DNA from: a virus
IMG/VR virus record: IMGVR_UViG_3300044591_000896
Coordinates: 32,001-96,000 of that record
Reading direction: 5' to 3' (one strand)
DNA length: 64,000 nt
A program made the translations under genes and the position numbers. Positions 42,891-62,080 of the stretch are shown in pieces. The stretch's first letter is position 1. Each line of letters begins with the position of its first letter. A model generated the notes under the pieces. That model worked only from the letters and a program-made list of their open reading frames with translations, made no database searches and had not been told where the DNA came from.

Positions 42891-43823
42891 TTATAGGTTT
42901 AGGTCCAATCTGTATTCTACGTCTACTGTTCTTCCCGTTGTTTTGTATAGTGGTGAAGAAAGTATTGATCTACTTATAATACCAAAGTTTGGATCAAATG
43001 TATCCTCATCGTTTATTCTGAGTCCGTCTGCGCCAATAGATGTCTGTTGTCCACTAATTGGTGTTACAACTATTCCAATTCTATTAATGCTTGATATGTC
43101 TGGTCCATTTATTGCCCCCGCAAATAGTTGCTCTAGGTATATTTCGTCTGCTATTTTATACCCTACTCCACCTGCAGGCGTTATCTGTATCTGATAGTAC
43201 TTGTCAACATCGCTATAGAATCTTATCTTTATATTTGAAAGATTTAAATCGTTTTGATAATAAACAAAAGATAGGGAGTCTAGCTTTGAATATCCAGATA
43301 AATCAATTGGGATTACTGACGTCACATATTCTTTTGATGATCCCGTTCCTGAATACATCTCAAGTGTGGTATCTCCAATTTTTCCATTTACATAGCCAAG
43401 GGATGGGTTGCCTCCTGCTATCTCTTCCCAGTCTAGGGGACTTGAAAACTCTGAAAGAAACTTGCTATCATAATTATTTGAAGATGTTCTTGTTGATGGA
43501 TAAATTCCAATTTCTGAAATTACACCAGAAACATCTTGTGGCAATGTTGCTTTATATACTACAGCATATGTAGTTCCATCTGTATCAGTCTGTATATCTG
43601 TGCTATAAATTCCTACTGGTATTCTATAGAACTCAAACTCTAATCTTGTGTCGTCCGCCGTTGCTGCAGTTGACCCTATTCCAAATGCCATATCTCTATC
43701 AGCTGTTTCTACCTTGCCAGCAAGAAGATTAGTTAAATATCTTTTACCAAACTTTGTTATAATATTTTTTGAACGGCCTATCTCTTTGCCGTCTTCGTAA
43801 TATATGTATGTACCTGTTATCAT
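42891..43823 (-). CDS. Virion structural protein (tail tip)
   Basis: Position; NIITKFG...MAFGIGSTAATADDTRL...ISEIGIY motif. Start moved to MITGT after GGAG. Confidence 0.7.
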   Translation of the reverse strand: MITGTYIYYEDGKEIGRSKNIITKFGKRYLTNLLAGKVETADRDMAFGIGSTAATADDTRLEFEFYRIPVGIYSTDIQTDTDGTTYAVVYKATLPQDVSGVISEIGIYPSTRTSSNNYDSKFLSEFSSPLDWEEIAGGNPSLGYVNGKIGDTTLEMYSGTGSSKEYVTSVIPIDLSGYSKLDSLSFVYYQNDLNLSNIKIRFYSDVDKYYQIQITPAGGVGYKIADEIYLEQLFAGAINGPDISSINRIGIVVTPISGQQTSIGADGLRINDEDTFDPNFGIISRSILSSPLYKTTGRTVDVEYRLDLNL

Positions 43824-43833
43824 ATTATCTCCA

Positions 43834-44619
43834 TTACTTTGGCGTAGAATACTGTGAGTAGTATGTCTTTCCATTTGTTCCAACTACAACTGCTCTTACA
43901 CGAAGCCACCTTGGGCTAGCTGTTGCAGATGTGTCTCCTTCATATGAGCTCACTCTATATGTTCTATTCTTACCACTATCTCCAATTGTTTTTGAAGCAG
44001 AGGCAACAAAATCTTTAGTTCCGTTATCTAGCGCTGTTGCATTTTTACCAGCAGTTGTGCTAATTATCCATTCATAACTTACTGACTCGTATGAGCCCAA
44101 GCCTGTTGAGTTATTCCATCCCCAGGCAAGAGATGTATTGCTATTTCCATATCTACTAAATGTTACTGCTGGTACAGTTGGTGTAGGCGCAATAAATTTT
44201 TGTGGGTTACCAGATGGTGTCTCATTTACATTTCTAGGTGCAGCAGCATCAAATATTCTTGCATCTACTCCAGCAATGTTTTCTTTATTGTCGCTTGAGT
44301 TTCTAATTTTAATAAATGCCGTCATGGTTGTTAGCTTAGTAGCTGGGTCATAGTCTTCTTGAAATGTAATGCTTTCAATGTCACTAAGATCTGGGACATC
44401 TTTTTTTATAGGCTTTGGCTTTGGGTCAGGCTCAGGTTCTGGCTCTGGATTTGGGTTTGGGTTTGGGTTTGTTGACCCATCATCATAGGCAGAATCTGAA
44501 CCTACATATGCAGCCTGAGCTTCTTTTTTGGTAACAAGAAATTTATTTTTGTTTAAAAATAGGGTATAGTCAATATCATTTTCTGATACTACTGGTTGTC
44601 TTGAGTCATTTCTTGTCAT
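43834..44619 (-). CDS. Virion-associated protein with a Pro-rich linker and FN3-like C-terminus
   Basis: NPNPNPNPEPEPEPDPKPKP linker; leaderless TGgTATAAT-N6-ATG. Confidence 0.7.
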   Translation of the reverse strand: MTRNDSRQPVVSENDIDYTLFLNKNKFLVTKKEAQAAYVGSDSAYDDGSTNPNPNPNPEPEPEPDPKPKPIKKDVPDLSDIESITFQEDYDPATKLTTMTAFIKIRNSSDNKENIAGVDARIFDAAAPRNVNETPSGNPQKFIAPTPTVPAVTFSRYGNSNTSLAWGWNNSTGLGSYESVSYEWIISTTAGKNATALDNGTKDFVASASKTIGDSGKNRTYRVSSYEGDTSATASPRWLRVRAVVVGTNGKTYYSQYSTPK

Positions 44620-44626
44620 TTTATCA

Positions 44627-46618: not shown

Positions 46619-48882
46619 ATCCACTCCACCACTCTTTCTGTCCATCCGCCAGATTCTATTACATTCATTGGTGTTGCTTTATGATCCGCTGCCAATGTGC
46701 CAAGTGCTCCACGTGTTTTAACACGATATCTACCTGTTGGCTTAAAATATGCTGTTCCTAAAATATTATTGATATCAACAAATCCTGGCTTTGATAATGA
46801 GACATACTTATTAACATCATTTTGTGATGCTATCCAAACAATATTTTCATCATCATTAAAATCAATAAATTGATATTCTAATGCATCAAATTCAATTACC
46901 TCTGAGTCAATAAGAAAATATCCGCTGAATGCGAATCCGCTTTGATATTGGCTATAAGAATCTCCAACAGTATTATTATTTATTACTAATACTGTATTAT
47001 CTGCTGGTGTGTCCTTTGATATGTCTAGCTTTAGTCCGCCTGCGCTCAAAAAAGTCGTTGGTGCTTGTGCAAGCTTTGTAGCATCTCCAGTATACTGGGT
47101 TGGCACAATTGAATTCCATATAATCTTTACGTTATTTCCAGAAGCAACTTCTTCTTGGCTTAAAGAAATAATGTTGGGAAGAACTGACCCTTCTGGCTTT
47201 TCATAAAAATTCCAAACTGGTACCGTTTGTGAATATATCTTATCTCTTGTATAAAATTGCAAAACATTATTTTGATCAAAGAAGGCATTCATCTGTATGT
47301 CTCTACACAAATCTTGAAGGTGCTCCCATACCGTTTTTGAATCTGTTGTCCACCAGTATCCTATTGTTGGTATTGAAGTGTCTTTAATTACTACGGCGCC
47401 TTTTGCAGATGTTTCTGTTACCATATTTATATTATAGTTTGTAAATCCAACTGAGTCTAGCAGTCTTCTAATTATTGCAGTTGCTGAGTATGTCTCGCAC
47501 AGCATGTCTGGCGCTATTGATTCCATTAAATACTTTGCGCCATCTAGGGCAACTATATCTGTGTCGCCAAAGTTATTAATTGTCCAGCTATCCATGTAGT
47601 AAGATCCCTGTGGAATCTTATACTCTGTTGAGCCATCATATATCTTAAAGTGTGGTCTTAGTTCTGCATTTTTAAATGTGTATAAGAAATCAAAGTCAGA
47701 TGGGCCATTGGCAATAGTTGTCCATGGCTTTTCTCTATTGTATGATCTAATCATAACCTGGTTCTGATTGTAGTTTGATAAAGACAAAGAAAGAACATTT
47801 GCTGAAAGCTTTCCTACTGGAAGGATGTCGCTTGAAGATGAATTTGAAGACTCTTGTGATAATGAAAATCCTGCAACTAGTGGGCTTATTTCCTTTACCC
47901 ATCTTGCAGAAATCTCTATTAATCCCATGACGCTTGTTCCGCCAGGATTTTTTGCAGTTAATGCAATTGATTTTATATACTTTGGGGCCCTGTAAATATT
48001 GTCAGTAAAATGAATCCAGTTTTCATCTATCTCAGTAGGATATAAAGATACTTCTCCTGATGGAAAATCTGTGCTAAAGTTAGGCATTATTCCTGACTTT
48101 ACTGCTCCATCTTTATAGGTTATGCTAACTGTAACTTCGGATGGTAGTGCATGATTCTTATCAAATCTAATTAATATCTTATTTGCAATCGCTGCTTTTG
48201 TTTCTGGTATAGTGGCTACTCCAGCAGATGTTAGATAGCCAATCTTACCTATGTTCTTTTCTATAATAAATGAAGTACTTGATGGTACCTCTATAATTTT
48301 GCCGTTTGTATTATATGCTGTGTCTGACATTCCAGTTATTGTTATTGTATTGCCAGTTACAAATCCATGTGGCACTGTGGTTGTATATTTAACCTTGAAC
48401 CTTGTACCAGTATTTGATGCCTCCGCTTTTATAATAGAAACAGTTGTTTGTGAATATTTAATTGTTATTGTTGAGTCTTTGCCTTCTGGCGATAGCCAGT
48501 ATTTATAAAATGTTGATGGACCTGGATAATAAACTCTTGGTGTAGAAAGATTATAGTATGTAGCTTTTGGATCTTTATATATAAAATTAGTTCCATCTGA
48601 TGGTACTACAAAATACTTGACTCCAGAATTTAGTGGTCTAAATGGCTTTATAATAGAATCAACTGGAAATAGCTTTTTAAATGGATTAGCTGTTCCCTGT
48701 TTAAAATTAGTTATTCCAGCGGTATATTCTGCATCTGTGTTTGATGAATACACTGATATATTGTCTATCATTGTATTCATATTGTATTCTATTTCACAGC
48801 CAACTGATATATTGATTGATGATCTGTTTTTTAATATTCCTGTGACGGCATCTGTTTGTGCTGGAGTTGCAAGAGAAATCAT
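46615..48882 (-). CDS. Minor tail / baseplate hub protein
   Basis: Position after the Dit-like gene; TVWEHLQDLC...FFDQNNVLQF hub motif; Ig-like insert. Confidence 0.75.
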   Translation of the reverse strand: MISLATPAQTDAVTGILKNRSSINISVGCEIEYNMNTMIDNISVYSSNTDAEYTAGITNFKQGTANPFKKLFPVDSIIKPFRPLNSGVKYFVVPSDGTNFIYKDPKATYYNLSTPRVYYPGPSTFYKYWLSPEGKDSTITIKYSQTTVSIIKAEASNTGTRFKVKYTTTVPHGFVTGNTITITGMSDTAYNTNGKIIEVPSSTSFIIEKNIGKIGYLTSAGVATIPETKAAIANKILIRFDKNHALPSEVTVSITYKDGAVKSGIMPNFSTDFPSGEVSLYPTEIDENWIHFTDNIYRAPKYIKSIALTAKNPGGTSVMGLIEISARWVKEISPLVAGFSLSQESSNSSSSDILPVGKLSANVLSLSLSNYNQNQVMIRSYNREKPWTTIANGPSDFDFLYTFKNAELRPHFKIYDGSTEYKIPQGSYYMDSWTINNFGDTDIVALDGAKYLMESIAPDMLCETYSATAIIRRLLDSVGFTNYNINMVTETSAKGAVVIKDTSIPTIGYWWTTDSKTVWEHLQDLCRDIQMNAFFDQNNVLQFYTRDKIYSQTVPVWNFYEKPEGSVLPNIISLSQEEVASGNNVKIIWNSIVPTQYTGDATKLAQAPTTFLSAGGLKLDISKDTPADNTVLVINNNTVGDSYSQYQSGFAFSGYFLIDSEVIEFDALEYQFIDFNDDENIVWIASQNDVNKYVSLSKPGFVDINNILGTAYFKPTGRYRVKTRGALGTLAADHKATPMNVIESGGWTERVVEWI

Positions 48883-49358
48883 TATACTTCCTCCAGCGTC
48901 ATTGATATTGTCCAGAAAGAATGTAATCCACGCTTTTGTAAGACTGCGGAAAATTCTGTAAACGATACTGTATATACTTCTCCTGTATTGACATTGTCTT
49001 CTGCGGCACCAGACTTTGCAAAATTTAATAGTATTCTAAATGTGCCCTTGCCCTCTTCGCTTGCATAAAATCTTCTTAGATCTTCTGCCCCAAGGTTTCC
49101 GTCTGCCGTATGTGTTCTTGTAGTTGGTAGCATATTCCAAGACATGCTAAATGTTTTTTTATCAGCAATAAAAAATTTTCTGAGGGTTCCGTTAGCCATT
49201 CTTTGAACTTGCTGGATTCTATTTGAGCCTACAGTTATTTCTGATCTATTGTGGTCAGATATTTTTAGCCAAGTTAAAGTGGTGCCTGGTACAGTGGCAA
49301 GAACATCCTTGCCCTCTATTTGTAGCCCTACGCCTTTAGGTAATTTTGTATAACCCAT
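48882..49358 (-). CDS. Distal tail (Dit-like) protein
   Basis: Directly after the TMP; RMANGTLR...KKTFSMSW...SMTLEEV. Confidence 0.7.
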   Translation of the reverse strand: MGYTKLPKGVGLQIEGKDVLATVPGTTLTWLKISDHNRSEITVGSNRIQQVQRMANGTLRKFFIADKKTFSMSWNMLPTTRTHTADGNLGAEDLRRFYASEEGKGTFRILLNFAKSGAAEDNVNTGEVYTVSFTEFSAVLQKRGLHSFWTISMTLEEV

Positions 49359-52300
49359 TATGCTCTAACCTCCAATCCACTTCCTAGTGATCTACTTTCT
49401 CCCATAGATTTAACTGATATCTTGCTCATTGTCTTCATAGACTCAACTGTTTTTCTTGTAACCATATCAGATAGTGCATTTATGTCACCATCAAATCCAT
49501 TAATATTATTTGTAATGTTATATACGCCTCCACCCATTGTAGCATTATTAGCATTAGGATTAAAGGGGTTCATGTTAGCAGGAACTACTGCTTCATTCTT
49601 ATGAAGCATCGCAAGCATATCTGCTGGGACATTATTAATTCCAGTTTCAAATTTAGGAATGTTGAATTTTCCTCCAGCCATTCCTCCTTCTGCAAAATGC
49701 CCAGCCTTTAAGAATGGCAAAACCTTACCCAATCTTTCTTTTTGATCAGCAGCTCTCGTAACAATTTCTGTTAGTGTTTTTTCTAATTCTGATGATATTT
49801 TAGTAAATCCCACTTTGCTTAAGTTCAGGGAATCAAAAAATCCTAGATCTCTTCCATCTAATATCTTTTTAAATCCAGATACTACTTTTTGAGGAGCTAA
49901 AGATGCTACAACTGGGTGGGACACAGAATTTGTATTTCTTCCACCTTCATGAACTATTGTGTCAATAAGGTATTTAAATCCTTTTGGACCTAGCTTGGTA
50001 AAAGCTAGCCTTAAATTCTCTCCTTGCAAGAAGCTATCTCTTGCTCTACCAAGTGAGCTAAATGCTTGACCAGGTATTCTTTCTCCTGCCAACATCAGTC
50101 TTGCAGTTTCCATTCCGTGAGTTTTAGCTAAAAACGATTCTAGAGCTGCATAGGCTCTTTTGCTTTGAGACCAAATTGATTTCTGTCCGCCACGTAAATC
50201 TAAAGTTTTTCTTCCAGTAAGTTTTTTGAAAAACATTTCATATATGTTTCCAGCTTCTTCGCTAAACACATTAACCGTATTTTTAGTTTTTGAATATGAT
50301 GAAGACATTCCTTTTGAAGCTGTGGTAAACAAATCAAAGTCAAAAAGGTTTCCGAACATGCTGTGCTTAGCAGCAAACATGTCATCTACTGCATTTCCTA
50401 AAACACCAGGTACTGATCTATCTAAAAGTGTTTCTGGAAGTATGCCTCCATGATAAAAAGGACGCATTGATAGCTCTTTAAGTGTTTCAAACATTTCTGG
50501 TCCTGAGCTTGGATCAACTGCTGAAGGTGACCAGCTTCCTTCTCTTCCACCCATTTCTAATATTTTTCTAGCTTTCATTGTTCCATATGGGGTGTATCTG
50601 TATAAGAAATTTGATATAGCTTGCTTTGGATTAAATGAAGATTTTGCTGGCAATATAAATTCTTTAAAGAATTTAAATGAATTCTTTTTAGCATCAATGC
50701 CAGAAGTTATTTTTGACTTTACCTTGCTTCCAATTTTAGCAATAGGATTTAAAGTTGTCGCTTTAGTTAAATTAGATAGTAGCCCAAAAAGTTCACCAAA
50801 GGCTTCCTGAGGATTTGTCTTACCAACATTGCTTAGGTCTGCCCAATCATCCCAAGCCTTTGCTCCTCCAGGAGCACCAGTACGAGATGGTAGAATACGA
50901 GGACGATTTGTAATATCGTCAAAAAAGCTTTTGCCTGTTCTTCTAACATAATCGGCTGTATTAGTAAATACAGATGGAACCCCCTTTGGACTATAAGGTC
51001 TAAAGCCAGCAATTTTAGGTATTTTATACAACGCCTCTTTGCCTACTTTTGTTGCGCCAACTGTTTTCCATAACACAGACCTTAGAGTATTTAATATGCC
51101 TTTAGGCGTTTGTTGTACGGCTCTTAGTGCTGCTGATCCCAACATCTTTGCAGATGGTGCAGCAACATCTAGTGGGTACTTTGATATAGATTTTGCTGCT
51201 TTGGTTTTGCCTACAAGGAAGTTGAGGGGGAATAACGCAGCATTTGCATAGTCACCCTTATTTGGTTTTCCAAAGAATTCGCTTTCTTTTCCTCCTCGAA
51301 AAATTTTATTTCCTGTTTGCATTAATCCTTTTATACCTAATGCGTCAAGCCAAGGTACTGAGAATCCCCTAAACAGTCCATCTCCAACTGCTGGTCCATA
51401 AGAATAAGGAGAGTTGTTGGATGAACTTTTATTTTTAGATTGGCTTTCAGTATAAACTCCCTTATCAATATATCTAGCATTAAGCTGATCAAGAGTCATT
51501 CCCTTTGTATCTATTACACTGATACCAAATCCACCACTCAACTTATCATAAACATAATGTTTTTTTCCATCAAGCTTTGTCCATTTAGGCGCTGACATCA
51601 CATTTGTTGAGTCGTGCTTATGACCTACTGGACCACCGTCATGGAACCCTTTTATCCTGCCTAGTGGATGATTTTTGACTCCAGTATAGAATGGAGCAAA
51701 TTGTCCAGCAGTTTCATTGCCAATCATGTACTTGGTTCCAATGTATCCGTCTTTCATAGCTGCTTGGACTGCTGGATGATTAAATTTTACTCCATACATA
51801 CCTTCTGTAAGACCATACTTTTTTGCCATATCTGTAGAGCTAGCAAACCCTTTACTTTTTAATATTGTCATTATGGCTTTAACATCTAGCTTTGTCTTAT
51901 ATGAGTTACTACCGTATCTTGGATTTCCAGCTTGATACTTAGGGCTTGATGAAAAGTGTGTAAAGTTTCCTAAAGTTTGTTCTTTTTGAGCCTGGTATTC
52001 GAGTGGATGTAAAAGCTCATCAGCTAGGTTTGGATTTGGGGAATTATGGACTCCCTGCTTCATAAGCTTAAGTGCTTCTAGTTTATTTCTAGTAGATCTG
52101 ATGGCTCTGGTTGGCCTAATAAATGGAATTATAGATGCGTAGTCCATAGCTCCAGCGTTGCCTTGTGCAATTCTTCCAGCTGTGTTGTACATTGAAATTT
52201 CTTTTAATGCCTCTAAAGCAGTAGCGTTCTTTTCTGACTGGCTTAAAGATGTCTTGTATTCTGGTGCACGGTAATCAAGTTTTTTTGCTCCATGGTTTTG

Positions 52301-55300
52301 CATTCCAGTAACATAAGCACTTCCTGCATTACTAAACCAATTTAATGGATTAAATCTTGACAGCCAGCCACCTTCTGCAAACCCAGGAATCATTCCGCCT
52401 TTATTTAAATATCCTGAGTTTATTGGTGAGGGTGACCCTAATCCAACTGGGCCACCACCTGCAAGCTTTTGAGCATTTAGTCCATCAAAGAAACTAACTC
52501 CATATTGCTTTACAGCTTTTTCTTTAATTACATACTCACCATTTGAAAGCCAAGCTGGAATAGAATCAGATGTTCCAGTTCCTGGACCCTTTACATTTCC
52601 ACCCCACTCAAAATTCTTAACTGGTCCTCCTGTAGCATAGGATCTAAATCCAACATTAGGAATATTGTATCCCCAATATCCAACTACTTTTCCTCCCTTT
52701 GTTACAGAACCATTGTGCTCATATTTTAATCCGTCTTGAACAAGAGGAGTTTTTACTCCTTTATTGTAAAGTGCTAGATTTATGTCTTGCACTCCGTTAA
52801 GCGCACCACGATTTACTTTGCTATTTGGATATATATAAGCTTCTCCAGACATAGGCTTTTCTGGGTTCTCAAAGTACTTTGCTCTTCCTTTAGCTCCTTT
52901 GCCAACAGATTTTCCATCTGCTGTAAAGTATTCCATTTTATTATAATCATTAGGATTTTCTGGGTCTTTTTTAATTTCTCCACGAAGCTTGCTTAAAGGT
53001 ATAGTTCTTGTTCCATTAACCTCATCTAATCCAGTTAATGTTTTAACATACAAACCAAAGTCTTCAACGTGAGTGCCAAATTTTTCAAAATAAGTTTTAG
53101 CATATTCTACTGTTGAATTTGCTGGGCCACCAGGATCATTTGTTAATGATTTAAGATACGCTACCCAGTCTTGTTTACCAGGCTGTACTATAGGCTGGCC
53201 TCCTGGCGTTACTATTGTTGATCCCTTTGATGTTGGAACTCCGCTTGTTACGGTTTTAGCAGCTTTTGCACCATCTGATCCAAGCGCTGCTAAGGCAGCT
53301 ACATCTGAGCGAAGTGCCTCAGCAAGTAAAGCAATTGTTCCTTCGTCTGTTGTAATTGCTGCTTTAGATAAAGTTGTTGCAATGCTCTGCTGCAATGCTT
53401 GTACTGACGCATATTCTTTTTGCTTAGCGTTAGCTATTTCCTGTAACTTGTTTGCTCGCTCTTGAAGCTTAATAAGTCTCTCTTGAACACCAGCTTTTTG
53501 AGCCTCAAGTTTTTTAACTTCTGCATCTCTCTTATCTTGAATTGCATTTATTGATAGTGTTTTTTGTCTTTCGTTTGTTAAGCTTTGTATATTAAGCTGG
53601 GATTGTGCTGCACGAGACATATCGCCAGACAATAATGCTTGCTGGTAGTTTAGTTGCTCTTTTTGAACCTCTGTTAAATAGTCTTGCTTTTCTGCTTGAT
53701 CTTCAATGGCACGTATTCTTGCATCTGCTTCTTCATTGATTTTTTCTATCTTTTTATCAAGAGCTTTTATTTCTGCATCTGCATTCTTTTGAGCATTCTT
53801 TGTTGCATCATCTGATGCCTTTTTTGCATCATCGTATGCTTTCTTTGCAGCTGCTCCGTATTCTGCAATTGCATCAATTGGGTTATTCATTAAATTAGCA
53901 TTTGTTGTCATCTCTGTTGCTGCTTGAGATATAGCGTTTACAACCTGTAGTAGTCCTTGAGCCTCTTCTCCACTTATATCAGAAAGGTCTGCTGTGACTC
54001 CATTTGTATATAACTGTATTTTTGCCCAAGCATCAACCATGCTATCAGTTGAATTTAATATGTCTTTATATAGTGGGTTTTCTTGTATAAGTGTATTTAA
54101 TATATTGTCGCCAATATCTTGTTGATTAGATTTGTTGGCATTCATGTGGGCTATAGTGTCATTTAAAGCTTCTACTTGTGACTTTGCTTTTCCGCTAGCA
54201 TCTTTTACCCCTACTAAGCTTTGGTAATAAAGCTGTATTGCATCTAATCCACCGCTAAATGATGCTGCAATTTCTTTTTTATCAACATCGGAAGCATTCA
54301 TTGACTTTACAAAAGTATCTATTGCTACCTTTGCTGCTGAGGCTCTATCGACTATCTTTAAAAATTCTGTTGATGATACAGCCTCTGTAGCCTGTGAAGC
54401 TTTATTTGAAATAGATATAATGCTGTAAATTTCTCTTGCTGCATCCTGTGCTGATTTTCCTGCTGCAACTAGCTGAACCTTTAGTGCTGTTGCTGCTTTT
54501 GTAACATCATTTTTATCAAGGTCATTAAACATAGACACAATATCGCCTTGTGTCTCTTTGGCTTTCTTTTGTAATGCATTAAGTTCTTTTACGGACATAT
54601 TAATTCCGCCGCCAATTGCAGTAGATCCCGCTGCCTTTACCTTAGTTAATTGACTTTGTGCTTGTGCTGCATCTGTTGCCTTTTTTATTTTATCAGTTAA
54701 ACTTACGTATGCAATTCCAAGTTGTTTTGCTTGCTTTTCATTTACATCAAAAGCTTCTTGAGAGGCAAGTCTTGCCTTTCTTGCATTCTCCCACGCTCCA
54801 TAAGATACTGTTGCAAGTGTTGTAAGTGCTACTACTGCTACCTTACCCCAACCAGGAATTGCCATTCCAACTAATCTTAGTTTGGCTAAGCTTTGTGCAA
54901 ATTTACTAACGCTCTTAGTTGCTACTGCGGTTTCTGCGGCATCGTCTACAACACTACCTGCTGCTTTAGCAGCCTTTGCAGCCTTTGCAGTTTTTACACC
55001 CTTGTAAATTGATCCAGCAGTCATTACTGCAAATATTCCATTTAGAATAAGGTTTGATTTTTCGCTGGCGATTCCCAACTTCTCTAAAGCTTTTGGCAAT
55101 AACATGAATGCAGCTAATGGCAAAGCTTGCTGTGCTACAATGCTTGCAACTGGACCTAGTGCTCCATAATTATACTTTCCAGTTCTAATCATTCCGCCTA
55201 ATGCATGGTTAGGAACAATACCTCCACTGTTCATAGGAACAAATAGCTCTGGCCCCTTTTCTCCAACTATGTAAGGTGTGCCACCAGATACAGGTCCGCC

Positions 55301-58300
55301 CTTTTCTCTGCCCTCTAAGCCAAATATTAATTTCTTTAGCTCTTCTGTTAATGGAGTATCTTTTCTAGATTCCCAATTTGTGTATCTTCTCTTAAGAATA
55401 TCTCTATCTATTGCAGATAATACTCTTCTTCCTTCTGGTGCGGAAATTGTAGAAGACGCAGCTGATCTAATGACTGAGTCCATAATGTCTGGCTCTAGTG
55501 CTTTTAATAATTGTCCTTGTGCATTTTTAGCATAGCCATATGGCATTTCTTTTGCAAGTGCTTCTGCAAACTTGTCATAAAGAATTCTTTGTGTTCTCTT
55601 TGTTAATCCGCTAGAAGCAAATAGCTTTTCTGCCATTCCTATTTCTAGTGATGTTACTCCCCATCCGCCAGTTGTATTCTTGCCAAACCCTGCACCAATT
55701 CTACGCATAGCAAGAGATTTAATAACATTGATTAATCCACCGCCATTAAATCCATTAGCATCAGATTTAAATGCCATATCACTTAGGCTTACAGCGTGGC
55801 CTTTTTGTCTTGCTCTTAATGCTGCAGCTTCTTCTAATTTAGCAAGCGCTGCTGGTGTTAATGATTTTGGAGCTGTTGGTTTGACTGCTGAATGTATGCC
55901 ATGAAACTCTTTCCAGTTTACATGCCTTGCATCTTCAAGTCTTTTTATCATTGCAGCATAAACTTCTTCTTCTCTTGGAGTTAGACCTTTAAAGCCAGCA
56001 ATTGTTTCTTTTAGTCTAGGAAGGACTTCATCAATTTCATTAAGCATCGATTGCTGATATTGCTGAGGGGTCATTCCTCTTGGAATGTCTACTGTTGATT
56101 CTGCAAAAAATCTCTTTGCTCCGCCCTTTACGCCAAGTAAATTAATTCTTGCTTGTTCTGCAACTGATGGCATATCGTCTGCATATGATCTTAAACCAGA
56201 AGCTGTTTTAAATACACCCATAGTTCCGCCGTCTGCAACAAAACTTCCTCCAATGTTGCCAGGTGATAAGTCTTTATCTCCTCTTAATGCTGATGCAAGT
56301 AACTGCTGGAAGTACTCCTGCTCTGACATTTCTTTTGGTAAGCTTGCAAATCTTGGATCATAAGGTGATTCAAGAACAAGAAGCTTTCTTTTACCTGCTG
56401 GATCTGTTGGGTCTATCATTACCCTTATTTCCTGCTGAGGAGGTGTTAATCTATGTGCGCCTTGGTGTATTGCATTATATCTTTGCTCAGCAAGTGCAGC
56501 AGTTTCATCAAGGACTGGCTTAACAAATACTCTTGTTCCATCTGGCTTTGTGTATACTCCGCCCACTCCTTCAACTGGGAAGCTGTGTCCTTTTGTATCT
56601 TCTTCTTTCTTTCCAAAGTTAGTTGGTTCTTCTTTTGCAAAACGACTCTTGTTAACTGCTTCTGTCGTCTGCTCCATAACCTCTCTACGTTTTCTTTGCT
56701 CTTGAACCTGCTTAATTGATTTAGGCATTCCAAGGAATAATCTTCCATAGTTAGCTTTTCTCTTTTTAATGATTCCGCCCATTGCAAAGCCATCAAGCAT
56801 CATATGAGCAAATGCTCCATCTTCACCATTAATCTTTAGTTCTTTAGGATTATATGTTTCATAAGAGCCCATAAAGTTTGTACCAAACTCTTCATTTTTT
56901 GTTATTAAAGTATCAAGATCAGATGTTCTATATGGACTTATTGCTGTTGCACCCTGAAATCCAGAGGAGTGGTTTCCTGGATCTTTGAACCCTCTTCTCT
57001 GCCCAGGTACATTTAAAGAATCAATATATCTTTTTCTTAGCCCTAGCTGATCTGCTATTTTAAGGTACTCTGCGTGTTGAGCTTGTGCAAATAGTCTTTC
57101 TCCAATAAGCGAGTCTCCATGTGATGCAAGATTTGATACGATACCGTCTCTTGCCTCTAGCACAAGTCTATCAGCCAACTCGTCATCTATTTTATTTACT
57201 TTTAAAAATCTTCTTAGTGCTGGTAGTGCCTCTGAAGGGGGAAGGAACATTATGTCATCTATTATTTCTTGTGGCTTAGCTGTCCCCGCATTTATCTTTG
57301 AATTTGTTGTTTTTCTAGTATTCAGTCCCCAGTTTCCAACAAAGAAGTATCCATTTTTATTTCCAAGAACTCCTCTTCTTGGTGCAGCAGCTCCAAATAC
57401 GCCTTCAACATAATCATGAGCATCATCTGCGTCAGTTCTATGCTCTCTTCCAAGCCTTATTTGTGGCGAAAGGTTTGCTAAATCATCTGCTGACTTTGCT
57501 TTCTTTCTTTTAAACAAACTCTTTAATGCATCAAATCTTCCATAGTTGTGCTTGCCAGAAACAATTGGTCCGCCTAAGATTCCGCCTGCATTTCTAAATT
57601 GAATTCTTTGTCCGTTATTTGCTGCCTCTAGTATAGGCAACATCTCTTGTGTTTGTTCTGGTGTAAATACTGTCTCATATGGAGTCAGCATTGCATCAAT
57701 CATTCCGCCACGGTTATATGGCTTACTCTTTTTTGCATATTCCACTAGCTGTGGATTATTTCTTGTTGCATCTTGATTTAATACAAAACCACCAACTGGT
57801 ATTTTTGCCATTGTGTTGTCATAGTTTACACTCTTGTCACCAGGTACAACTGGGCCATCTTCTAATGTGTATACATATCCACCATCATTAAAGCCTCTAA
57901 GTGGACCTCTCTTTGGAAGAATAATTCTTGGCTTAGTTGTTTCTATGCTGTATCCGCCGCCAGAAGTTCTAACACCTAATCCTTCTGCAACCTTATCGAC
58001 AAGAGCTGCTGTCTCTGGCTTATGGAACATTTCTTTCATGTTGGACTTGCCAGTTACTGGATCAACCACTGGCTGGCTAGTAAATGGTACTGTAGTTAGA
58101 TTTATTCCTCTTCCCATACCAGCGGCAACCTGTGCAGCTGTTTCTGCCATCATAACTTCAATGGTTGCATTTAATGAAATAATTTTTGCTCTTGCTTGAT
58201 CTACAGTGATTACACCTTGCTGTAGCTGTCTTACAATCATAGCTCCTTCATCTGCAGCCAATTGTGTGAGCTGTTGCATCTGTGGAAGCATTGCTTGGTA

Positions 58301-60637
58301 TACTGAAGATAACTCATGTGTAACTGTGCCAGTTGCTGCTACTTCGGTCTTTAATAATGAAAGCTCTGCTTGTGACTGTGTAGCAATTGCTGCTGTCATA
58401 GCATGCCATTTAGCAGCTTCTGCAGCTACGATTCCCGTAGAAACTCCACTTATAGATGTTACGCCAGGAACTCTTGGAAGATCCTGATCCATATACATCT
58501 GTGGGTTGTTGCTTACTCTAACATTTACTGGACCTGGGTTTGGAACAACGCCAAATATGGTTCCTGGCTGCTGTATAGCTGCAGGTATGGTGTGTGCAAA
58601 TTGTCTGCTATAAGGAGCCCCTATAAACTTGCTATCTTTATCTGCCATTCTTTCTGCATTTGCTGCAACGCCTGTTGGAGACAATACTGTTGCTCCACCC
58701 ATTGTACTTATACTTGAGCTTGTTGCAACTGCTGAATTTAATGCGCTTGCCTTCAATCTATCAAATGACGCTGCAAGATTATTAACTGCTGTCTCTAATG
58801 CTATTGCAGCTTGTGCATCACTAAAGAATGATTTTTCTACAACCTTACCAGCTTCTGCTGCTGCCATCATTTCAGGTGTTAATAATTTAAATCCTGAGCC
58901 ACCCTTAAATAATTGCTTTAGATGGAATACTCCCTTGATAATATATCCAAGGAAGTTTCCAAGCACACCAGTAAGCATGATAAGTGGTCCTGCAAATGCT
59001 GTTAGTCCACCAAGGAATGTCAGTAATGACTTGATTGGTCCTGGTAGATTTTCTACAAACTTAATTATTCCGCTGATTGTTTTTAATACAAATGTGCTTA
59101 TCTTTAAGAACTGATCACCGACGCCTGCAAGTTCTGCCTTAATTGTTTCAAGTGCTCTTTTGTATTGTCCAGATGCAGACTCTGTCATAGCCTTTAATTC
59201 TCGGTCTGCTATACTTGCTAGCTCTTCTGTGCTTGCTTTCATCAAATCTAATACTTGTAAAGTTTGTGAGCCCTCTTTTCCAAGGTTATTAAATAAAGCT
59301 CCCATACGAGCAAACTGGAATTTTCCAAAAAGTTGCTCAATTGCCTGAGCTTTTTGTAACGGATCTAGCTTATCTAATGATGCTTGTAGTGCTAATATTG
59401 TTGCAGTTACATCTCCAGCATTACTCTTTACAATTGATCCAAGATCAATTCCAAATCCCATAAACATTTCTTTTGCAACTTTAGTTGGGTTAATAAGTGA
59501 TGCAAGAGATGACTTAATGGCATTAGCACCTTCTGATGCATTTACTCCGCCTTCTTTCATTGCAGTTAAATAAAGAGCAAGATCTTGAACGTTTCCACCA
59601 AGAGATTCAATTACTGGTCCTGCTTTTGGAATTGCTTCAACTAAATCCGCAAGAGATGTTGAGGTCTGGTTTTCAACTGCGTTAAGGAAGTTAATTGATT
59701 GTGCTAACTCATCATTGCTTTGTTTAAATGCATTTTGAATAGCAAGAGTTGCTTTCATTGCATCTTGTCTATCTACTTCACCAAGGATAGAAAGTCTTGT
59801 TGTTTCTTGCGTTGATACAAGCAGGTCATTTCCTTGCTTGCCAGTTGCTGCAATATCCGCTGCTAATGCGATTGTTTCTTTATATGATGCACCATAGATA
59901 GACGCTAATTCTTTTGCTGTCTCCTCGACATCTTTTCTAACTTGCTTTAGTTCTGCAGAAGATGTTTCTGCTAAACCACCGTAAACCTTTGTAAGTCTAA
60001 CTAGCTGCTGGTCTGCTTCTAGGAATGCTTTTTGTGCTGCCGCACCAAATGCCATCATTGGAACTGTTAATCCAACTGTTAACTGGCGTCCTGCCCACTG
60101 TGTATTTTTACCCCAGTTGATAAGCTGGTTGGATCCATCAAGCATCACCTTGTTAAGAATTGATGCCTCTTGTCTTAATAAAGCAGTTCTATTTTTTAAA
60201 AGATCTAGTCCATTAGCTACGTGGACATTGTATTGCATTTGCCCCTGGGCATTTCTTCCCAGGGGTTGCAATACAGCTTGTTCCATTAATACTTGCTGCT
60301 TAGCAAGATCTTTAATTAATGTACTTGTTTTTCTTGTGTGTCCTTGCCAGACTCCAAAGTACTCGCCAAGTTTCATTCGGCCAGTATCTAGCCTCTTTCC
60401 AAACTTTTGTACATCAGATTCAAGTGTTACAAAGTGTGAAGAAAATTGTCCAGTTGCTCGCATTGTTTCGGCAAATGAACGATTCATTCTGCCTACTTCA
60501 TTAGATAGGTTTCTATCTAATCCAATGGTTGTAGCTTGAAGTTTAACTAACTCGGCGGTTACGGCTCTTAACTGCGCTGTTAAACTTGAAAAGTTTGCCG
60601 TCGCAGTTATGTTCGTATTAATATTTTGTTCAGCCAA
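49358..60637 (-). CDS. Giant tape measure protein (3759 aa) with embedded kinase-like and ADP-ribosyltransferase-like domains
   Basis: Follows the tail chaperones; N-terminal TP901-type TMP core (GRQLTVGLTVP...GVNASEGANAIKS...EQLFGK); TM segments; repeated xxGG motifs. TTG start with GGAG. Confidence 0.93.
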   Translation of the reverse strand: MAEQNINTNITATANFSSLTAQLRAVTAELVKLQATTIGLDRNLSNEVGRMNRSFAETMRATGQFSSHFVTLESDVQKFGKRLDTGRMKLGEYFGVWQGHTRKTSTLIKDLAKQQVLMEQAVLQPLGRNAQGQMQYNVHVANGLDLLKNRTALLRQEASILNKVMLDGSNQLINWGKNTQWAGRQLTVGLTVPMMAFGAAAQKAFLEADQQLVRLTKVYGGLAETSSAELKQVRKDVEETAKELASIYGASYKETIALAADIAATGKQGNDLLVSTQETTRLSILGEVDRQDAMKATLAIQNAFKQSNDELAQSINFLNAVENQTSTSLADLVEAIPKAGPVIESLGGNVQDLALYLTAMKEGGVNASEGANAIKSSLASLINPTKVAKEMFMGFGIDLGSIVKSNAGDVTATILALQASLDKLDPLQKAQAIEQLFGKFQFARMGALFNNLGKEGSQTLQVLDLMKASTEELASIADRELKAMTESASGQYKRALETIKAELAGVGDQFLKISTFVLKTISGIIKFVENLPGPIKSLLTFLGGLTAFAGPLIMLTGVLGNFLGYIIKGVFHLKQLFKGGSGFKLLTPEMMAAAEAGKVVEKSFFSDAQAAIALETAVNNLAASFDRLKASALNSAVATSSSISTMGGATVLSPTGVAANAERMADKDSKFIGAPYSRQFAHTIPAAIQQPGTIFGVVPNPGPVNVRVSNNPQMYMDQDLPRVPGVTSISGVSTGIVAAEAAKWHAMTAAIATQSQAELSLLKTEVAATGTVTHELSSVYQAMLPQMQQLTQLAADEGAMIVRQLQQGVITVDQARAKIISLNATIEVMMAETAAQVAAGMGRGINLTTVPFTSQPVVDPVTGKSNMKEMFHKPETAALVDKVAEGLGVRTSGGGYSIETTKPRIILPKRGPLRGFNDGGYVYTLEDGPVVPGDKSVNYDNTMAKIPVGGFVLNQDATRNNPQLVEYAKKSKPYNRGGMIDAMLTPYETVFTPEQTQEMLPILEAANNGQRIQFRNAGGILGGPIVSGKHNYGRFDALKSLFKRKKAKSADDLANLSPQIRLGREHRTDADDAHDYVEGVFGAAAPRRGVLGNKNGYFFVGNWGLNTRKTTNSKINAGTAKPQEIIDDIMFLPPSEALPALRRFLKVNKIDDELADRLVLEARDGIVSNLASHGDSLIGERLFAQAQHAEYLKIADQLGLRKRYIDSLNVPGQRRGFKDPGNHSSGFQGATAISPYRTSDLDTLITKNEEFGTNFMGSYETYNPKELKINGEDGAFAHMMLDGFAMGGIIKKRKANYGRLFLGMPKSIKQVQEQRKRREVMEQTTEAVNKSRFAKEEPTNFGKKEEDTKGHSFPVEGVGGVYTKPDGTRVFVKPVLDETAALAEQRYNAIHQGAHRLTPPQQEIRVMIDPTDPAGKRKLLVLESPYDPRFASLPKEMSEQEYFQQLLASALRGDKDLSPGNIGGSFVADGGTMGVFKTASGLRSYADDMPSVAEQARINLLGVKGGAKRFFAESTVDIPRGMTPQQYQQSMLNEIDEVLPRLKETIAGFKGLTPREEEVYAAMIKRLEDARHVNWKEFHGIHSAVKPTAPKSLTPAALAKLEEAAALRARQKGHAVSLSDMAFKSDANGFNGGGLINVIKSLAMRRIGAGFGKNTTGGWGVTSLEIGMAEKLFASSGLTKRTQRILYDKFAEALAKEMPYGYAKNAQGQLLKALEPDIMDSVIRSAASSTISAPEGRRVLSAIDRDILKRRYTNWESRKDTPLTEELKKLIFGLEGREKGGPVSGGTPYIVGEKGPELFVPMNSGGIVPNHALGGMIRTGKYNYGALGPVASIVAQQALPLAAFMLLPKALEKLGIASEKSNLILNGIFAVMTAGSIYKGVKTAKAAKAAKAAGSVVDDAAETAVATKSVSKFAQSLAKLRLVGMAIPGWGKVAVVALTTLATVSYGAWENARKARLASQEAFDVNEKQAKQLGIAYVSLTDKIKKATDAAQAQSQLTKVKAAGSTAIGGGINMSVKELNALQKKAKETQGDIVSMFNDLDKNDVTKAATALKVQLVAAGKSAQDAAREIYSIISISNKASQATEAVSSTEFLKIVDRASAAKVAIDTFVKSMNASDVDKKEIAASFSGGLDAIQLYYQSLVGVKDASGKAKSQVEALNDTIAHMNANKSNQQDIGDNILNTLIQENPLYKDILNSTDSMVDAWAKIQLYTNGVTADLSDISGEEAQGLLQVVNAISQAATEMTTNANLMNNPIDAIAEYGAAAKKAYDDAKKASDDATKNAQKNADAEIKALDKKIEKINEEADARIRAIEDQAEKQDYLTEVQKEQLNYQQALLSGDMSRAAQSQLNIQSLTNERQKTLSINAIQDKRDAEVKKLEAQKAGVQERLIKLQERANKLQEIANAKQKEYASVQALQQSIATTLSKAAITTDEGTIALLAEALRSDVAALAALGSDGAKAAKTVTSGVPTSKGSTIVTPGGQPIVQPGKQDWVAYLKSLTNDPGGPANSTVEYAKTYFEKFGTHVEDFGLYVKTLTGLDEVNGTRTIPLSKLRGEIKKDPENPNDYNKMEYFTADGKSVGKGAKGRAKYFENPEKPMSGEAYIYPNSKVNRGALNGVQDINLALYNKGVKTPLVQDGLKYEHNGSVTKGGKVVGYWGYNIPNVGFRSYATGGPVKNFEWGGNVKGPGTGTSDSIPAWLSNGEYVIKEKAVKQYGVSFFDGLNAQKLAGGGPVGLGSPSPINSGYLNKGGMIPGFAEGGWLSRFNPLNWFSNAGSAYVTGMQNHGAKKLDYRAPEYKTSLSQSEKNATALEALKEISMYNTAGRIAQGNAGAMDYASIIPFIRPTRAIRSTRNKLEALKLMKQGVHNSPNPNLADELLHPLEYQAQKEQTLGNFTHFSSSPKYQAGNPRYGSNSYKTKLDVKAIMTILKSKGFASSTDMAKKYGLTEGMYGVKFNHPAVQAAMKDGYIGTKYMIGNETAGQFAPFYTGVKNHPLGRIKGFHDGGPVGHKHDSTNVMSAPKWTKLDGKKHYVYDKLSGGFGISVIDTKGMTLDQLNARYIDKGVYTESQSKNKSSSNNSPYSYGPAVGDGLFRGFSVPWLDALGIKGLMQTGNKIFRGGKESEFFGKPNKGDYANAALFPLNFLVGKTKAAKSISKYPLDVAAPSAKMLGSAALRAVQQTPKGILNTLRSVLWKTVGATKVGKEALYKIPKIAGFRPYSPKGVPSVFTNTADYVRRTGKSFFDDITNRPRILPSRTGAPGGAKAWDDWADLSNVGKTNPQEAFGELFGLLSNLTKATTLNPIAKIGSKVKSKITSGIDAKKNSFKFFKEFILPAKSSFNPKQAISNFLYRYTPYGTMKARKILEMGGREGSWSPSAVDPSSGPEMFETLKELSMRPFYHGGILPETLLDRSVPGVLGNAVDDMFAAKHSMFGNLFDFDLFTTASKGMSSSYSKTKNTVNVFSEEAGNIYEMFFKKLTGRKTLDLRGGQKSIWSQSKRAYAALESFLAKTHGMETARLMLAGERIPGQAFSSLGRARDSFLQGENLRLAFTKLGPKGFKYLIDTIVHEGGRNTNSVSHPVVASLAPQKVVSGFKKILDGRDLGFFDSLNLSKVGFTKISSELEKTLTEIVTRAADQKERLGKVLPFLKAGHFAEGGMAGGKFNIPKFETGINNVPADMLAMLHKNEAVVPANMNPFNPNANNATMGGGVYNITNNINGFDGDINALSDMVTRKTVESMKTMSKISVKSMGESRSLGSGLEVRA

Positions 60638-60642: not shown

Positions 60643-61304
60643 TTACTCCTTTGAGTATCCTAATCCTGCTCCAACACCAAAGCCAGCTTCTGCTGCAAAT
60701 GGGCCTTGTAATGAAACCACATCATCTCCTGATGCTTCTATTCCAAGTGCCCTTCTTTGTATGTCTTCAAAGGTAGGACCTTTGTTTTCTTCTTCTTCAC
60801 CATCTAACTCAATGCCTTGAATTGCTGCTAAGAACTTTCTTTTTTCTGACTCACTTTTCTGCATTGACTTAAATGTTTGAACAAGTTCTGGCATTGAGAG
60901 GCTTTCTTCTAGCTCTTCGTAATTTTTCCAATTACCTAAAAGAAAAACTTCTCCTAATAAAGCGGCTAAATCTAGTTCTGCCCAGCCAGAACCGCTGCCG
61001 CTAGAAGGTTTGGGTCGTCCATCTTAATTCCACCACATACTTCTAGGATGCGGTTAATTGTTGGAACATCTAGAACATCTTCAAAAGCATCTACATCTTT
61101 TACCAAGTCTGGTAACTGCTTTTCTAGTGCTACTGCACATGCTTCAATAAGGATTGTTAATGTTTCGTCTTCTGTAGTTACGTCTGCTGTCTTTTGGATA
61201 ACAACCATAAACTTTCTAAGCTCTTTAATTGTTAAAGGCTTTAGCTTTACGGTTACGCCATTTTGTAGAGTAATTTCTTCTACGCTATATACTGTTGTTG
61301 CCAA
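60643..61304 (-). CDS. Tail assembly chaperone G-T fusion produced by -1 frameshift
   Basis: The -1 frame is open from 61023 to 60643 (…GWAELDLAALLGEVFLLGNWKNYEELEESLSMPEL…) and overlaps the end of G. Confidence 0.8.
60972..61304 (-). CDS. Tail assembly chaperone G
   Basis: Between the major tail protein and TMP; LKPLTIKELRKF; TTG start after AGGAGG. Confidence 0.85.
   Translation of the reverse strand: MATTVYSVEEITLQNGVTVKLKPLTIKELRKFMVVIQKTADVTTEDETLTILIEACAVALEKQLPDLVKDVDAFEDVLDVPTINRILEVCGGIKMDDPNLLAAAVLAGQN
61008..61014 (-). other. Slippery heptamer C-CCA-AAC (-1 programmed ribosomal frameshift)
   Basis: X-XXY-YYZ in the correct phase of ORF G (codons D-P-N), followed after 5 nt by a stem-loop. 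Confidence 0.8.
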
Positions 61305-61361
61305 TTTGAATCCTCCTAGGATCTAGTCTTAATTATTGTATCATATAGATTTTATCAGCAC

Positions 61362-61392
61362 AAATAGAAAATCCCCCCATTTCTGGGGGGAC
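61362..61392 (-). terminator. Intrinsic terminator after the major tail gene
   Basis: TCCCCCCA-GAAA-TGGGGGGA followed by TTTTCTATTT. Confidence 0.85.
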
Positions 61393-61414
61393 TGACTATA
61401 ATTAAATTAATTAA

Positions 61415-62080
61415 TTAGTTCTTTGTAACACGGTCAATGATCTTGCCGTATTCTGATCCTGCGTAATTACCGTCTGGAAGCAAACGGAATGTTACTGGGA
61501 ATGTTGTTGCTGCGTTACGAGCAAGTGAGAATTGTGACTGCTGTACAGACAATACTCTACGTGCGTAGTATACACGCTCTGTGTTTGGTGTTACTTCAGT
61601 TGGAGCCTGTCCAATTGCAAATAGCTGACGCTCTGTTGGAGCAACTCCAAGAGCACCTGCCTCAAGGCCAAGAACTTCGTCAACGTTATCGTTTGCAGAT
61701 GCTCCCTTTGAGAGTGTGCCTGACTTTGTTGATGACGCCTGACCAAATACGGCCATAACGTTCTCTAGTGTACCTTCTGCTAATTCTGTTGCAATCATAA
61801 CTTCCATTGACTCCTTGAATAGCTTTGCTGTATCAAGAAGCTGATCTACTGTTACTGAACCGTATGATGGGTTGTAAGTAATCTGAAGACCGTTGTTTGT
61901 GAAACCTACGTTACGAACTGCTGCTGATGCATCTAGTGCAACTGCAGCCTTTGCTCCCTTTGTGAAAGCAACTGTTCCCTTGTCTAACATGTTTTCTACG
62001 TATGCTGCATCAGTTGAATCTTTTGTTGAAAGATAAAGTGGTGATGCACCGACTAGAATATTTTTGGCGTTTAGTGCCAT
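61415..62080 (-). CDS. Major tail (tube) protein
   Basis: NILVGA...VGFTNNGL...VTVDQ...TELAEGTLEN...FPVTFRLLPD; own promoter, AGGAGG RBS, terminator. Confidence 0.88.
   Translation of the reverse strand: MALNAKNILVGASPLYLSTKDSTDAAYVENMLDKGTVAFTKGAKAAVALDASAAVRNVGFTNNGLQITYNPSYGSVTVDQLLDTAKLFKESMEVMIATELAEGTLENVMAVFGQASSTKSGTLSKGASANDNVDEVLGLEAGALGVAPTERQLFAIGQAPTEVTPNTERVYYARRVLSVQQSQFSLARNAATTFPVTFRLLPDGNYAGSEYGKIIDRVTKN

Follow-up and report, generated by a model that had tools for sequence, protein, structure and literature searches.

A giant mosaic tape measure protein of uncultured siphoviruses and its probable organisation into modules set at motif-marked joints

What siphoviruses bring into the cell besides DNA is a question raised anew by a gene at 49358..60637 of a 64,000-nucleotide stretch of viral DNA, referred to here as the window, which corresponds to bases 32001-96000 of the 115,479-bp IMG/VR record IMGVR_UViG_3300044591_000896, a record with direct terminal repeats. 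A prediction made from the letters of the window (the original prediction) described the product as a tape measure protein (TMP) that serves as an effector-delivery polyprotein, punctuated by about 14 short linkers of the form PhixxGG. The open reading frame (ORF) is the TP901-type TMP of the phage, because it matches PF10145 (PhageMin_Tail) at amino acids (aa) 239-438 (E 8e-25), it matches nine PHROG tape-measure families over aa ~10-850 (with phrog_10030 at E 4.6e-124 over aa 160-849), and it lies among the tail genes. Translation begins at a TTG codon, with an N-terminus that agrees with the N-termini of relatives, and the nearest cultured match is the 2,084-aa TMP of Streptomyces phage Wofford, which is 35% identical over the TMP core. 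In a collection of 50,697 phage records, Megablast found nothing that matches the gene.

The explanation that we consider likely is that this is a giant mosaic TMP, belonging to a clade of uncultured siphoviruses that have terminal repeats and genomes of ~110-120 kb, and that its conserved scaffold carries modules at joints that are marked by motifs. The scaffold would comprise three parts: the TMP core, which includes a first hydrophobic stretch; a second ruler segment, which is hydrophobic and helical; and the anchor at the C-terminus. Folded or foldable modules would interrupt this scaffold at fixed joints. We refer to the parts of the gene and protein as follows, in order from the N-terminus.

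49358..60637, minus strand: whole TMP gene, a single ORF of 3,759 codons plus stop.
58028..60637, minus strand: canonical TMP core, aa 1-870, assigned by PF10145, PHROGs and the 35% identity to Wofford.
59324-59923, minus strand: PF10145 stretch within the core, aa 239-438.
58928-59017, minus strand: hydrophobic stretch 1 within the core, aa 541-570.
57533..58027, minus strand: joint region L1, aa 871-1035, with FNDGG, YNRGG, RNAGG and GKHNYG, and a diverged 46-aa unit at aa 976-1015.
56789..57532, minus strand: module A, aa 1036-1283, an optional module.
56744..56788, minus strand: joint FAMGG...RKANYG, aa 1284-1298, with 82 ends of high-scoring segment pairs (HSPs) at aa 1258-1305.
55751..56743, minus strand: module B, aa 1299-1629, an atypical protein-kinase-like domain by predicted fold.
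55736..55750, minus strand: joint FNGGG, aa 1630-1634, marked by the motif and by breakpoints.
55310..55735, minus strand: module C, aa 1635-1776, an optional module.
55163..55309, minus strand: joint region L2, aa 1777-1825, with REKGG, VGEKGPELFVP, HALGG and GKYNYG, and homology to the T5 cleavage site.
53228..55162, minus strand: second ruler-like segment, aa 1826-2470, with hydrophobic stretch 2 (aa ~1829-1880) and a long A/L/E/K/Q-rich region that is presumably helical.
52640..53227, minus strand: module D, aa 2471-2666, rich in G/P/N/S and aromatic residues.
52367..52639, minus strand: joint region L3, aa 2667-2757, with YATGG, FEWGG, a full 46-aa unit at aa 2684-2730, LAGGG, LNKGG and FAEGG.
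49697..52366, minus strand: hypervariable cassette slot, aa 2758-3647, containing module E, FHDGG and module F.
51647-52114, minus strand: module E core in the slot, aa 2842-2997.
aa 2998-3002, minus strand: joint FHDGG in the slot, between E and F.
aa 3003-3647, minus strand: module F in the slot, with an inner boundary at FYHGG, aa 3394.
49358..49696, minus strand: FAEGG joint and C-terminal anchor (IPKFETGINNVPADMLAMLHKNEAVVP...), aa 3648-3759, conserved in relatives.

Each of the 14 pentapeptides on the list is present at the expected residues, as are the three K-x-NYG motifs and the three longer modules to which attention had been drawn, and the motifs are strongly enriched. In tests with 2,000 shuffles per motif, [FY]xxGG was observed 10 times against a shuffle mean of 2.15 +/- 1.42, [FY]xxGGx[VIL] nine times against 0.42, and KxNYG three times against 0.04, and in each case 0/2,000 shuffles reached the observed count. 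The Phi position is R, H or L, rather than aromatic, in five of the 14. A 15th PhixxGG that was outside the list, FYHGG at aa 3394 (window 50456-50470, aa 3390-3394 region), coincides with a homology breakpoint, the F2/F3 boundary common to six relatives.

These motifs are not the independent linkers they had been taken for, but are instead the ends of a conserved 46-residue unit, or the start of a module like that at the T5 cleavage site. The unit was obtained with an iterative profile built on relatives and has the consensus GPGTGTSDSIPAMLSPGEYVIKAKAVEKYGPLIDALNAGKFAEGGP; PhixxGG (as FAEGG) forms its end, and the 'GPGTGTSDSIPAWLSNGEYV' module of the original prediction forms its start. A full copy is located at aa 2684-2730 and a diverged copy at aa 976-1015, with remnants at aa 949-978, 3634-3653 and 3676-3689, and each relative contains from one to four copies. 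The same unit is found in at least 20 PHROG TMP families, mostly near the C-termini, as well as twice in gp16 of mycobacteriophage Douge and once in the TMP of PDB entry 8rk3. In lambda gpH it lies at aa 739-782, flanked by FATGG and YATGG, although only the family profile detects this copy; when L3 and gpH are aligned as a pair, the score is not significant (z 1.1). Judged by this distribution the unit is a general TMP element, present once near the C-terminus in ordinary TMPs, and the first of two proposed kinds of joint would be a copy or remnant of it, ending in PhixxGG.

Searching with aa 900-3759 returned 120 further giant single-ORF TMPs of 2,100-4,300 aa, many of them on 100-120-kb contigs, and the BLASTP map of these relatives is a mosaic. 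Conservation extends over aa 1 to ~1010, L3 (aa 2667-2757) and the last 110 residues, whereas the second ruler-like segment (aa 1826-2470) is weakly conserved across the family, with 24-42% identity; the C-terminal anchor is 70-95% identical in relatives and is also matched by the C-terminal ends of PHROG TMPs. Homology breakpoints in L1 fall at aa 1009-1038. Module A is present only in the closest clade and in P0036-44/93, with other sequence at this place in other relatives, and module B is kept in most of the family but is missing in a few members, such as P0106/7, which lack the whole A-B-C block. Module C is optional, and in P0049 GFNIGG-MVQA is joined straight to REKGG, with C precisely missing. 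The order of modules is not fixed either, as in P0113 the kinase-like module follows an L3-type unit instead of preceding it, and across 80 viral loci its position within the ORF ranges from ~720 to 2,167 (~2,167 in L069), compared with ~1,300 here.

In 59 relatives the slot, which extends from the L3 unit to the C-terminal anchor, varies in length from 226 to 1,441 aa. Here it spans aa 2758-3647, and relatives with 74-97% identity as far as aa ~2730-2757 have unrelated sequence in place of these residues; in the closest clade, in which the backbone is 74-97% identical, there are at least five unrelated slot contents. The exchange can be followed in the DNA, which relative to the sister-phage locus L002 is 87% identical up to the LAGGG codons, unrelated until just past FAEGG, and then 94% identical to the end of the gene. 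Unrelated cassettes each close with their own xxxGG (FAEGG, GATGG or FANGG) in the same register despite the DNA being dissimilar there, which points, as far as sequence comparison goes, to selection acting on the motif beyond its use as a recombination patch. Among 62 distinct right-hand slot junctions, a hydrophobic-xxGG motif was found in 37 by regular expression, and by eye about three quarters have some xxxGG. The expectation that GG motifs are recombination points for swappable cargo is thus borne out in the relatives, which insert, delete, reorder and swap modules there, and the alignment of related TMPs that had been suggested as a check shows that cargo varies and that the slot is replaced even between close relatives.

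A further joint sequence, GGPVGH[KR]H[DG]ST following GG, occurs at FHDGG in the TMP described here (aa 3001-3010, window 51608-51637) and at the left edge of the slot in L002 (~14260-14300). It is shared by these two phages despite the differing cargo behind it.

The second proposed kind of joint would be a module homologous to the cleavage site of the T5 TMP, with the form R|xxGG...GExGxExxxP. T5 pb2 is cut after R1127 during tail assembly to give pb2* and pb2C (PMC10038345), and the cut frees from the ruler a small C-terminal piece with a metallopeptidase motif and reported muralytic activity (PMC10038345). In L2, the T5 sequence R|AEGGMMYPGVSYQMGEHGTEVVTPM aligns without gaps with R1777-EKGGPVSGGTPYIVGEKGPELFVPM, such that the first aligned residue is the T5 P1 arginine, R1127; the Smith-Waterman score is 60 (z 7.3), which 0/2,000 shuffles reach. 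Written with its upstream residues, T5 ...FVPR|AEGGMMYPGVSYQMGEHGTEVVTPM is aligned with TMP aa 1777-1802, REKGGPVSGGTPYIVGEKGPELFVPM, and REKGG and VGEKGPELFVP correspond residue for residue to R1127|AEGG...GEHGTEVVTP. L2 also matches phrog_30701 and phrog_1538. Because of the alignment of T5 R1127 at R1777, one of the 14 listed motifs, REKGG, is by sequence homologous to an experimentally mapped TMP cleavage site, and the other GG motifs resemble the T5 cut site only as motifs. The C-terminal anchor is not significantly similar to the pb2 C-terminus (z 1.6).

There are further likenesses to T5 pb2, in that both proteins lack cysteine and have a hydrophobic stretch upstream of the aligned site. 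They differ in that T5 has a single site 92 residues from its end, whereas here the putative cleavage site is mid-protein, with 1,980 residues after it and ~14 further GG motifs. Lambda gpH is cut to gpH* and gpHC in a glycine-rich region, with the exact site and the protease unknown (PMC12617516). Like the TMP here, gpH has no cysteine and has the 46-aa unit with FATGG/YATGG (aa 733-782, in gpHC and adjoining the cut region), although it has just one unit, no inserted modules, and no known enzymatic activity. By homology with T5, cleavage at R1777 is plausible, and at the other joints it is possible; that the chain is cut at one or more joints is a tentative suggestion, whose chances we would place a little short of even.

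In another relative, L003 (IMGVR_UViG_3300046777_001542, 11400-11560), a one-base frameshift divides the TMP between two ORFs, of 1,790 and ~2,145 aa. It falls in a poly-A run within the REKGG codons, where the homology to the T5 cleavage site lies. The frameshift is probably a sequencing error, with programmed slippage an alternative that is worth a look. This split could be taken to mean that the giant gene is itself an artefact, in which several genes are read as one ORF through assembly or base-calling errors. However, the gene extends for 11.3 kb, with 3,759 stop-free codons at 38% G+C, the identical protein is present on three contigs, and there are more than 100 independent relatives with giant ORFs, and an artefact is extremely improbable.

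A different history would be a tandem fusion of at least two former TMP genes or fragments, for which the repeats would be relics without any present role as joints, and the mosaic would reflect ordinary recombination. Residues 1-1825 resemble a complete T5-type TMP, with core, hydrophobic stretch and R|xxGG...GExGxE module, residues 1826-3759 repeat the plan with hydrophobic stretch, helices, unit and C-terminal anchor, and P0106/7 do without the A-B-C block. Against this, unrelated cassettes keep their own xxxGG at the joint although their DNA is dissimilar, and breakpoints cluster at the motifs far more than at other conserved parts. We regard fusion as a very improbable substitute for a scaffold with motif-marked joints, although a fusion history could be compatible with it.

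Of the modules themselves, B has the clearest predicted structure. Its AlphaFold2 (AF2) model, made from a 33-sequence alignment, has a predicted local distance difference test score (pLDDT) of 83 and a predicted template modelling score (pTM) of 0.77, and the top Foldseek rows and the top VIA rows are all kinases. In VIA-align the model matches CtkA (3akk) with Z 10.3 and a root-mean-square deviation of 4.6 A over 202 residues, and PI4KII (Z 9.3), MavQ (9.3), Golgi casein kinase (9.1), LepB (9.0) and HipA (8.4) also match. G1360, K1373, E1384, R1452, D1454, D1456, N1461 and D1469 are invariant in 78 sequences of 42-98% identity, among which G1359 is 97% conserved, and the key residues are each in the expected structural element, with K1373 in strand 3 and E1384 in helix C. 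No curated kinase family of Pfam, NCBIfam or PHROG matches module B even at a permissive E-value. Because no such curated model matches, module B is, according to its model, kinase-like by fold and outside the named families, with a predicted active site that is intact. Compared with the atypical kinases CtkA, PI4KII, MavQ and LepB of Legionella, HipA and Fam20, it shares the bilobal fold (Z 8-10 over ~200 residues), as well as a Gly-rich loop, beta3 Lys, alphaC Glu, D-x-D-x4-N catalytic loop and DxG metal site, but differs from them in that identity is 8-15%, no family model matches, and it was found only in giant TMPs.

A search for stand-alone homologues of the kinase-like domain returned mostly fragments on short contigs and no stand-alone protein, and in 80 viral loci the module lies inside ORFs mostly of 2,000-4,400 aa, the shorter ones being those that run into a contig end or are interrupted. 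Its best structural matches in BFVD are large multidomain phage proteins annotated as ADP-ribosyltransferase (ART) or PI3/4-kinase. Among 185,579 bacterial species genomes the module has two matches only, L083 and L084 (46-50% identity), on contigs of metagenome-assembled genomes with the labels Bifidobacterium sp. and Acidimicrobiaceae, both of them probably mis-binned contigs of phages. They are at best a faint hint of an actinobacterial host, which agrees with the nearest cultured TMP cores being from actinophages.

The other modules are less readily interpreted. The original prediction saw non-helical, enzyme-like inserts between the motifs, and this stands for B and in part for E; for A, C and D it holds for composition only, and the model for F is too poor. 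Family searches segment by segment, which had been suggested as a check, found nothing in Pfam, NCBIfam and PHROG beyond the TMP core and the joint units, and it was the structure model that gave B its kinase-like fold. In these three collections modules A, C and D have no match; A also has no usable ESM Atlas match, and in a sequence search of the PDB A-C have no match and D-F match the joint unit only. The AF2 model of E and F together is moderately confident for E at aa 2847-2982, F being mostly low-confidence helices. Foldseek found no match for it in the PDB, and the VIA wide matches have Z < 4.5 throughout and are mostly generic helices. An ART fold for module F, at aa ~3392-3586, finds no support in a model of this quality.

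Beyond generic helices, the VIA matches of module E are to MbcT, ParT and the anti-CRISPR 6kyf (Z 3.6-3.9), the last of which we take to be AcrIF11. AcrIF11 is an ART, MbcT has an ART fold, and the ParT structure is titled an ADP-ribosylating toxin. PF18760 (ART-PolyVal) is present in 12% of members of the Atlas neighbour cluster of module E, and its homologues have a GxHxS / GPGTYFA / [DE]GYIG pattern. A profile search of module E against the PDB gave no match, and PF18760 matched neither module E with seven homologues, at E-values up to 10, nor anything in the whole genome. From these model-based comparisons we consider the chance that module E has an ART fold to be about even. E and F have 19 homologues among 1.84 billion representatives, mostly pieces of TMPs. 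An E-like module with extra ends is also found in P0134 (384 aa), P0137 (449 aa) and P0138 (284 aa), and the end of P0134 resembles the TMP C-terminus; these proteins may be free-standing cargo or cassette reservoirs.

The slot cargo of sister phages is in part recognisable. P0007 has OmpA directly after the joint, P0069 has CHAP, LysM and NlpC/P60, and P0121 has a HAD acid phosphatase, while the cargo of P0003, P0011 and P0014 is Pfam-dark. That at least one module has an enzyme fold with a predicted intact active site is sustained. The recognisable cargo of sister phages, in contrast, comprises wall binders and hydrolases, and a role in envelope penetration would suit it as well as, or better than, one as cytoplasmic effectors.

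A plausible path for delivery can be proposed by analogy with other tails. In structures of Douge, T5 and lambda the TMP C-terminus is in the tail tip (T5, PMC10038345; lambda, PMC12617516), and by this analogy the C-terminal anchor here presumably plugs the tip, with the chain lying in the tail lumen. The chain would leave before the DNA, C-terminal end first, and, by the precedent of T5 and lambda, some joints may be cut while the tail is assembled or during ejection. Those modules of the slot that are closest to the C-terminus would then meet the envelope first and act on it, in agreement with the cargo of sister phages that binds or cuts the wall, and the two hydrophobic stretches could take part in a channel. 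The kinase would act on the cytoplasmic side, because a kinase needs ATP.

Several points weigh against a modular TMP of this kind. The clustering of internal HSP ends at the 14 motifs, from which 45% of 616 are no more than 10 aa away against 9% expected, speaks for the joints but overstates their precision, because HSP ends are drawn to conserved islands, and the explicit junctions are the firmer evidence; furthermore, in about a quarter of the cassettes the right slot edge has no GG motif. Module B alone has a confident fold, the AF2 model of E and F being poor (pLDDT 49.7), and the kinase, as modelled, might lack activity or might have its role in the cell that produces the phage. The recognisable slot cargo of relatives (OmpA, CHAP, LysM, NlpC/P60) is wall-acting rather than of the cytoplasmic effector type, and it is unclear how ~1,900 non-helical residues per chain would fit in a tail lumen. 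As for processing, the genome has no match to Peptidase_C39 or Peptidase_C48, and the TMP itself has no HExxH or HxxEH motif, no cysteine and no peptidase family match. The only match among the three peptidase families looked for in the genome is an HK97-type prohead protease (PF04586, E 8.8e-8) in a 466-aa frame at G000:C1:99315-99500 (L085), 3.3 kb past the end of the window.

One interpretation of these points is that, its great size apart, the protein is like the TMPs of TM4, T5 and staphylococcal phages in having embedded domains for penetration of the envelope, whose modules would bind or degrade wall and membranes in the periplasm and whose GG units would be structural and uncut, contacting for example the tube or the tip, with no cytoplasmic effector. 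The wall-acting domains in the variable slot of sister phages, the general occurrence of the 46-aa unit in TMPs, the missing matches to the two peptidase families and the tip location of the C-terminus in the Douge, T5 and lambda structures are all in keeping with it. However, invariant ATP- and metal-binding residues across 78 sequences make little sense in a periplasm that is free of ATP, the HAD phosphatase of P0121 is cargo of another sort, modules A, C, D, E and F are unlike known wall enzymes, and L2 shares homology with the place at which T5 pb2 is cleaved. On balance we think this interpretation unlikely. If the modules were only aids to envelope penetration, the family would still show TMP adaptation to cell walls through cassette exchange.

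The modular TMP that we favour can also be extended to a full polyprotein, in which the PhixxGG joints are T5-type processing sites and the TMP is released as several separate proteins that act before phage gene expression, but this extension seems to us rather doubtful. Its products would be a kinase with activity, perhaps an ADP-ribosyltransferase, and the cassettes in which sister phages differ, acting on the envelope and in the cytoplasm, and the exchange of cassettes would be an arms-race device similar to that of polymorphic toxins, perhaps serving counter-defence. More generally, this TMP and its more than 100 relatives suggest a modular loading of the tail lumen with exchangeable proteins. 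The family has a joint motif that is well defined, a joint with homology to a cleavage site that has been mapped, and, as a tractable test case, a conserved kinase-like domain. If confirmed, such loading would add a class of pre-expression effectors to those known in phages, explain TMPs far longer than tail length requires, and offer a natural scaffold for protein delivery by phage tails.

To our knowledge, the T5 and lambda TMPs are the only ones known to be cut, and P23-45 provides the only known cytoplasmic enzyme fused to a TMP. The P23-45 protein, gp96 of this Thermus phage, is a 5,002-aa TMP with an N-terminal virion RNA polymerase (PMC10770324), which is active in vitro and is found on phage DNA 5 min after infection by chromatin immunoprecipitation sequencing (ChIP-seq) with anti-gp96 (PMC10770324). 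Both gp96, as described, and the TMP here are giant TMPs that carry an enzyme of cytoplasmic type within the polypeptide, a likeness that is functional only; gp96 has one N-terminal enzyme, a polymerase, and no cassette swapping is described, whereas here there are several internal modules, repeated joints and a kinase fold. The TMP of mycobacteriophage TM4 carries an embedded peptidoglycan hydrolase motif. TMPs with such embedded motifs are cited in PMC12617516. These also place enzyme domains within a TMP, as do the relatives here with CHAP, NlpC/P60, LysM and OmpA, but they have one or two small wall-acting motifs, whereas the TMP here has up to seven modules, one of them with a kinase fold, as well as its hypervariable slot.

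Polyvalent proteins (Iyer et al. 2017, PMC5512222) combine many domains, including kinases and ARTs, in one injected polypeptide, which is delivered with the DNA by phage-tail injection or conjugation and in some cases is a MuF fusion, with tape measure or TMP never mentioned in that account (PMC5512222). The TMP here resembles them in its unrelated domains and suspected recombinational variability, and in that the best BFVD matches of module B are such multidomain proteins. The candidates for effector-type domains in this TMP are B, with its kinase-like fold, and E, which is weakly ART-like. It differs in that polyvalent proteins usually contain a domain-releasing metallopeptidase (MPTase), and no such motif, nor PF18760, was detected in this TMP. 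In polymorphic toxins a short peptide marks the border between constant and exchangeable parts, as with VENN in CdiA and PxxxxDPxGL in Rhs. The resemblance to the joints here is in the way they work only, a short conserved peptide bordering a module that differs among close relatives, and is limited in that the variable part here is internal with a conserved anchor after it, no immunity gene is evident, and the carrier is a virion protein. For contractile injection systems, too, TMP-related effectors have been published (PMC13277306). The idea of a novel system, as originally put forward, is not wholly new, as gp96 already provides a published case of an enzyme fused to a TMP and acting in the infected cell. 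The literature that we searched does not, however, contain a large TMP family that is a multi-slot carrier with a defined joint, a widely conserved kinase, and a slot that differs among near-identical phages.

The genes surrounding the TMP gene include tail genes, in the order seen in Wofford.

60643..62080, minus strand: upstream tail genes, assigned by PHROG matches and by the same order as in Wofford.
61415-62080, minus strand: gene for a 221-aa Ig-domain protein, matching the PHROG 'protein with Ig domain'.
60972-61304 and 60643-60894, minus strand: two small ORFs in the position of tail-assembly chaperones, between the Ig-domain gene and the TMP gene.
42891..49358, minus strand: downstream genes, partly with PHROG minor-tail or tail matches.

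The Wofford product that carries the same PHROG Ig-domain annotation is its annotated major tail protein. Downstream, the genes with matches to PHROG minor-tail or tail families are those at 46615-48882, 44627-46645 and 42891-43883.

Finally, there is no cysteine in the 3,759 residues of the TMP, and the median for the 120 relatives is also zero. Cysteine is likewise absent from lambda gpH, T5 pb2 and the Wofford TMP, and the only relatives with as many as 5-6 cysteines are those with CHAP/NlpC modules. Absence of cysteine may be a general constraint on proteins that pass through the tail lumen.

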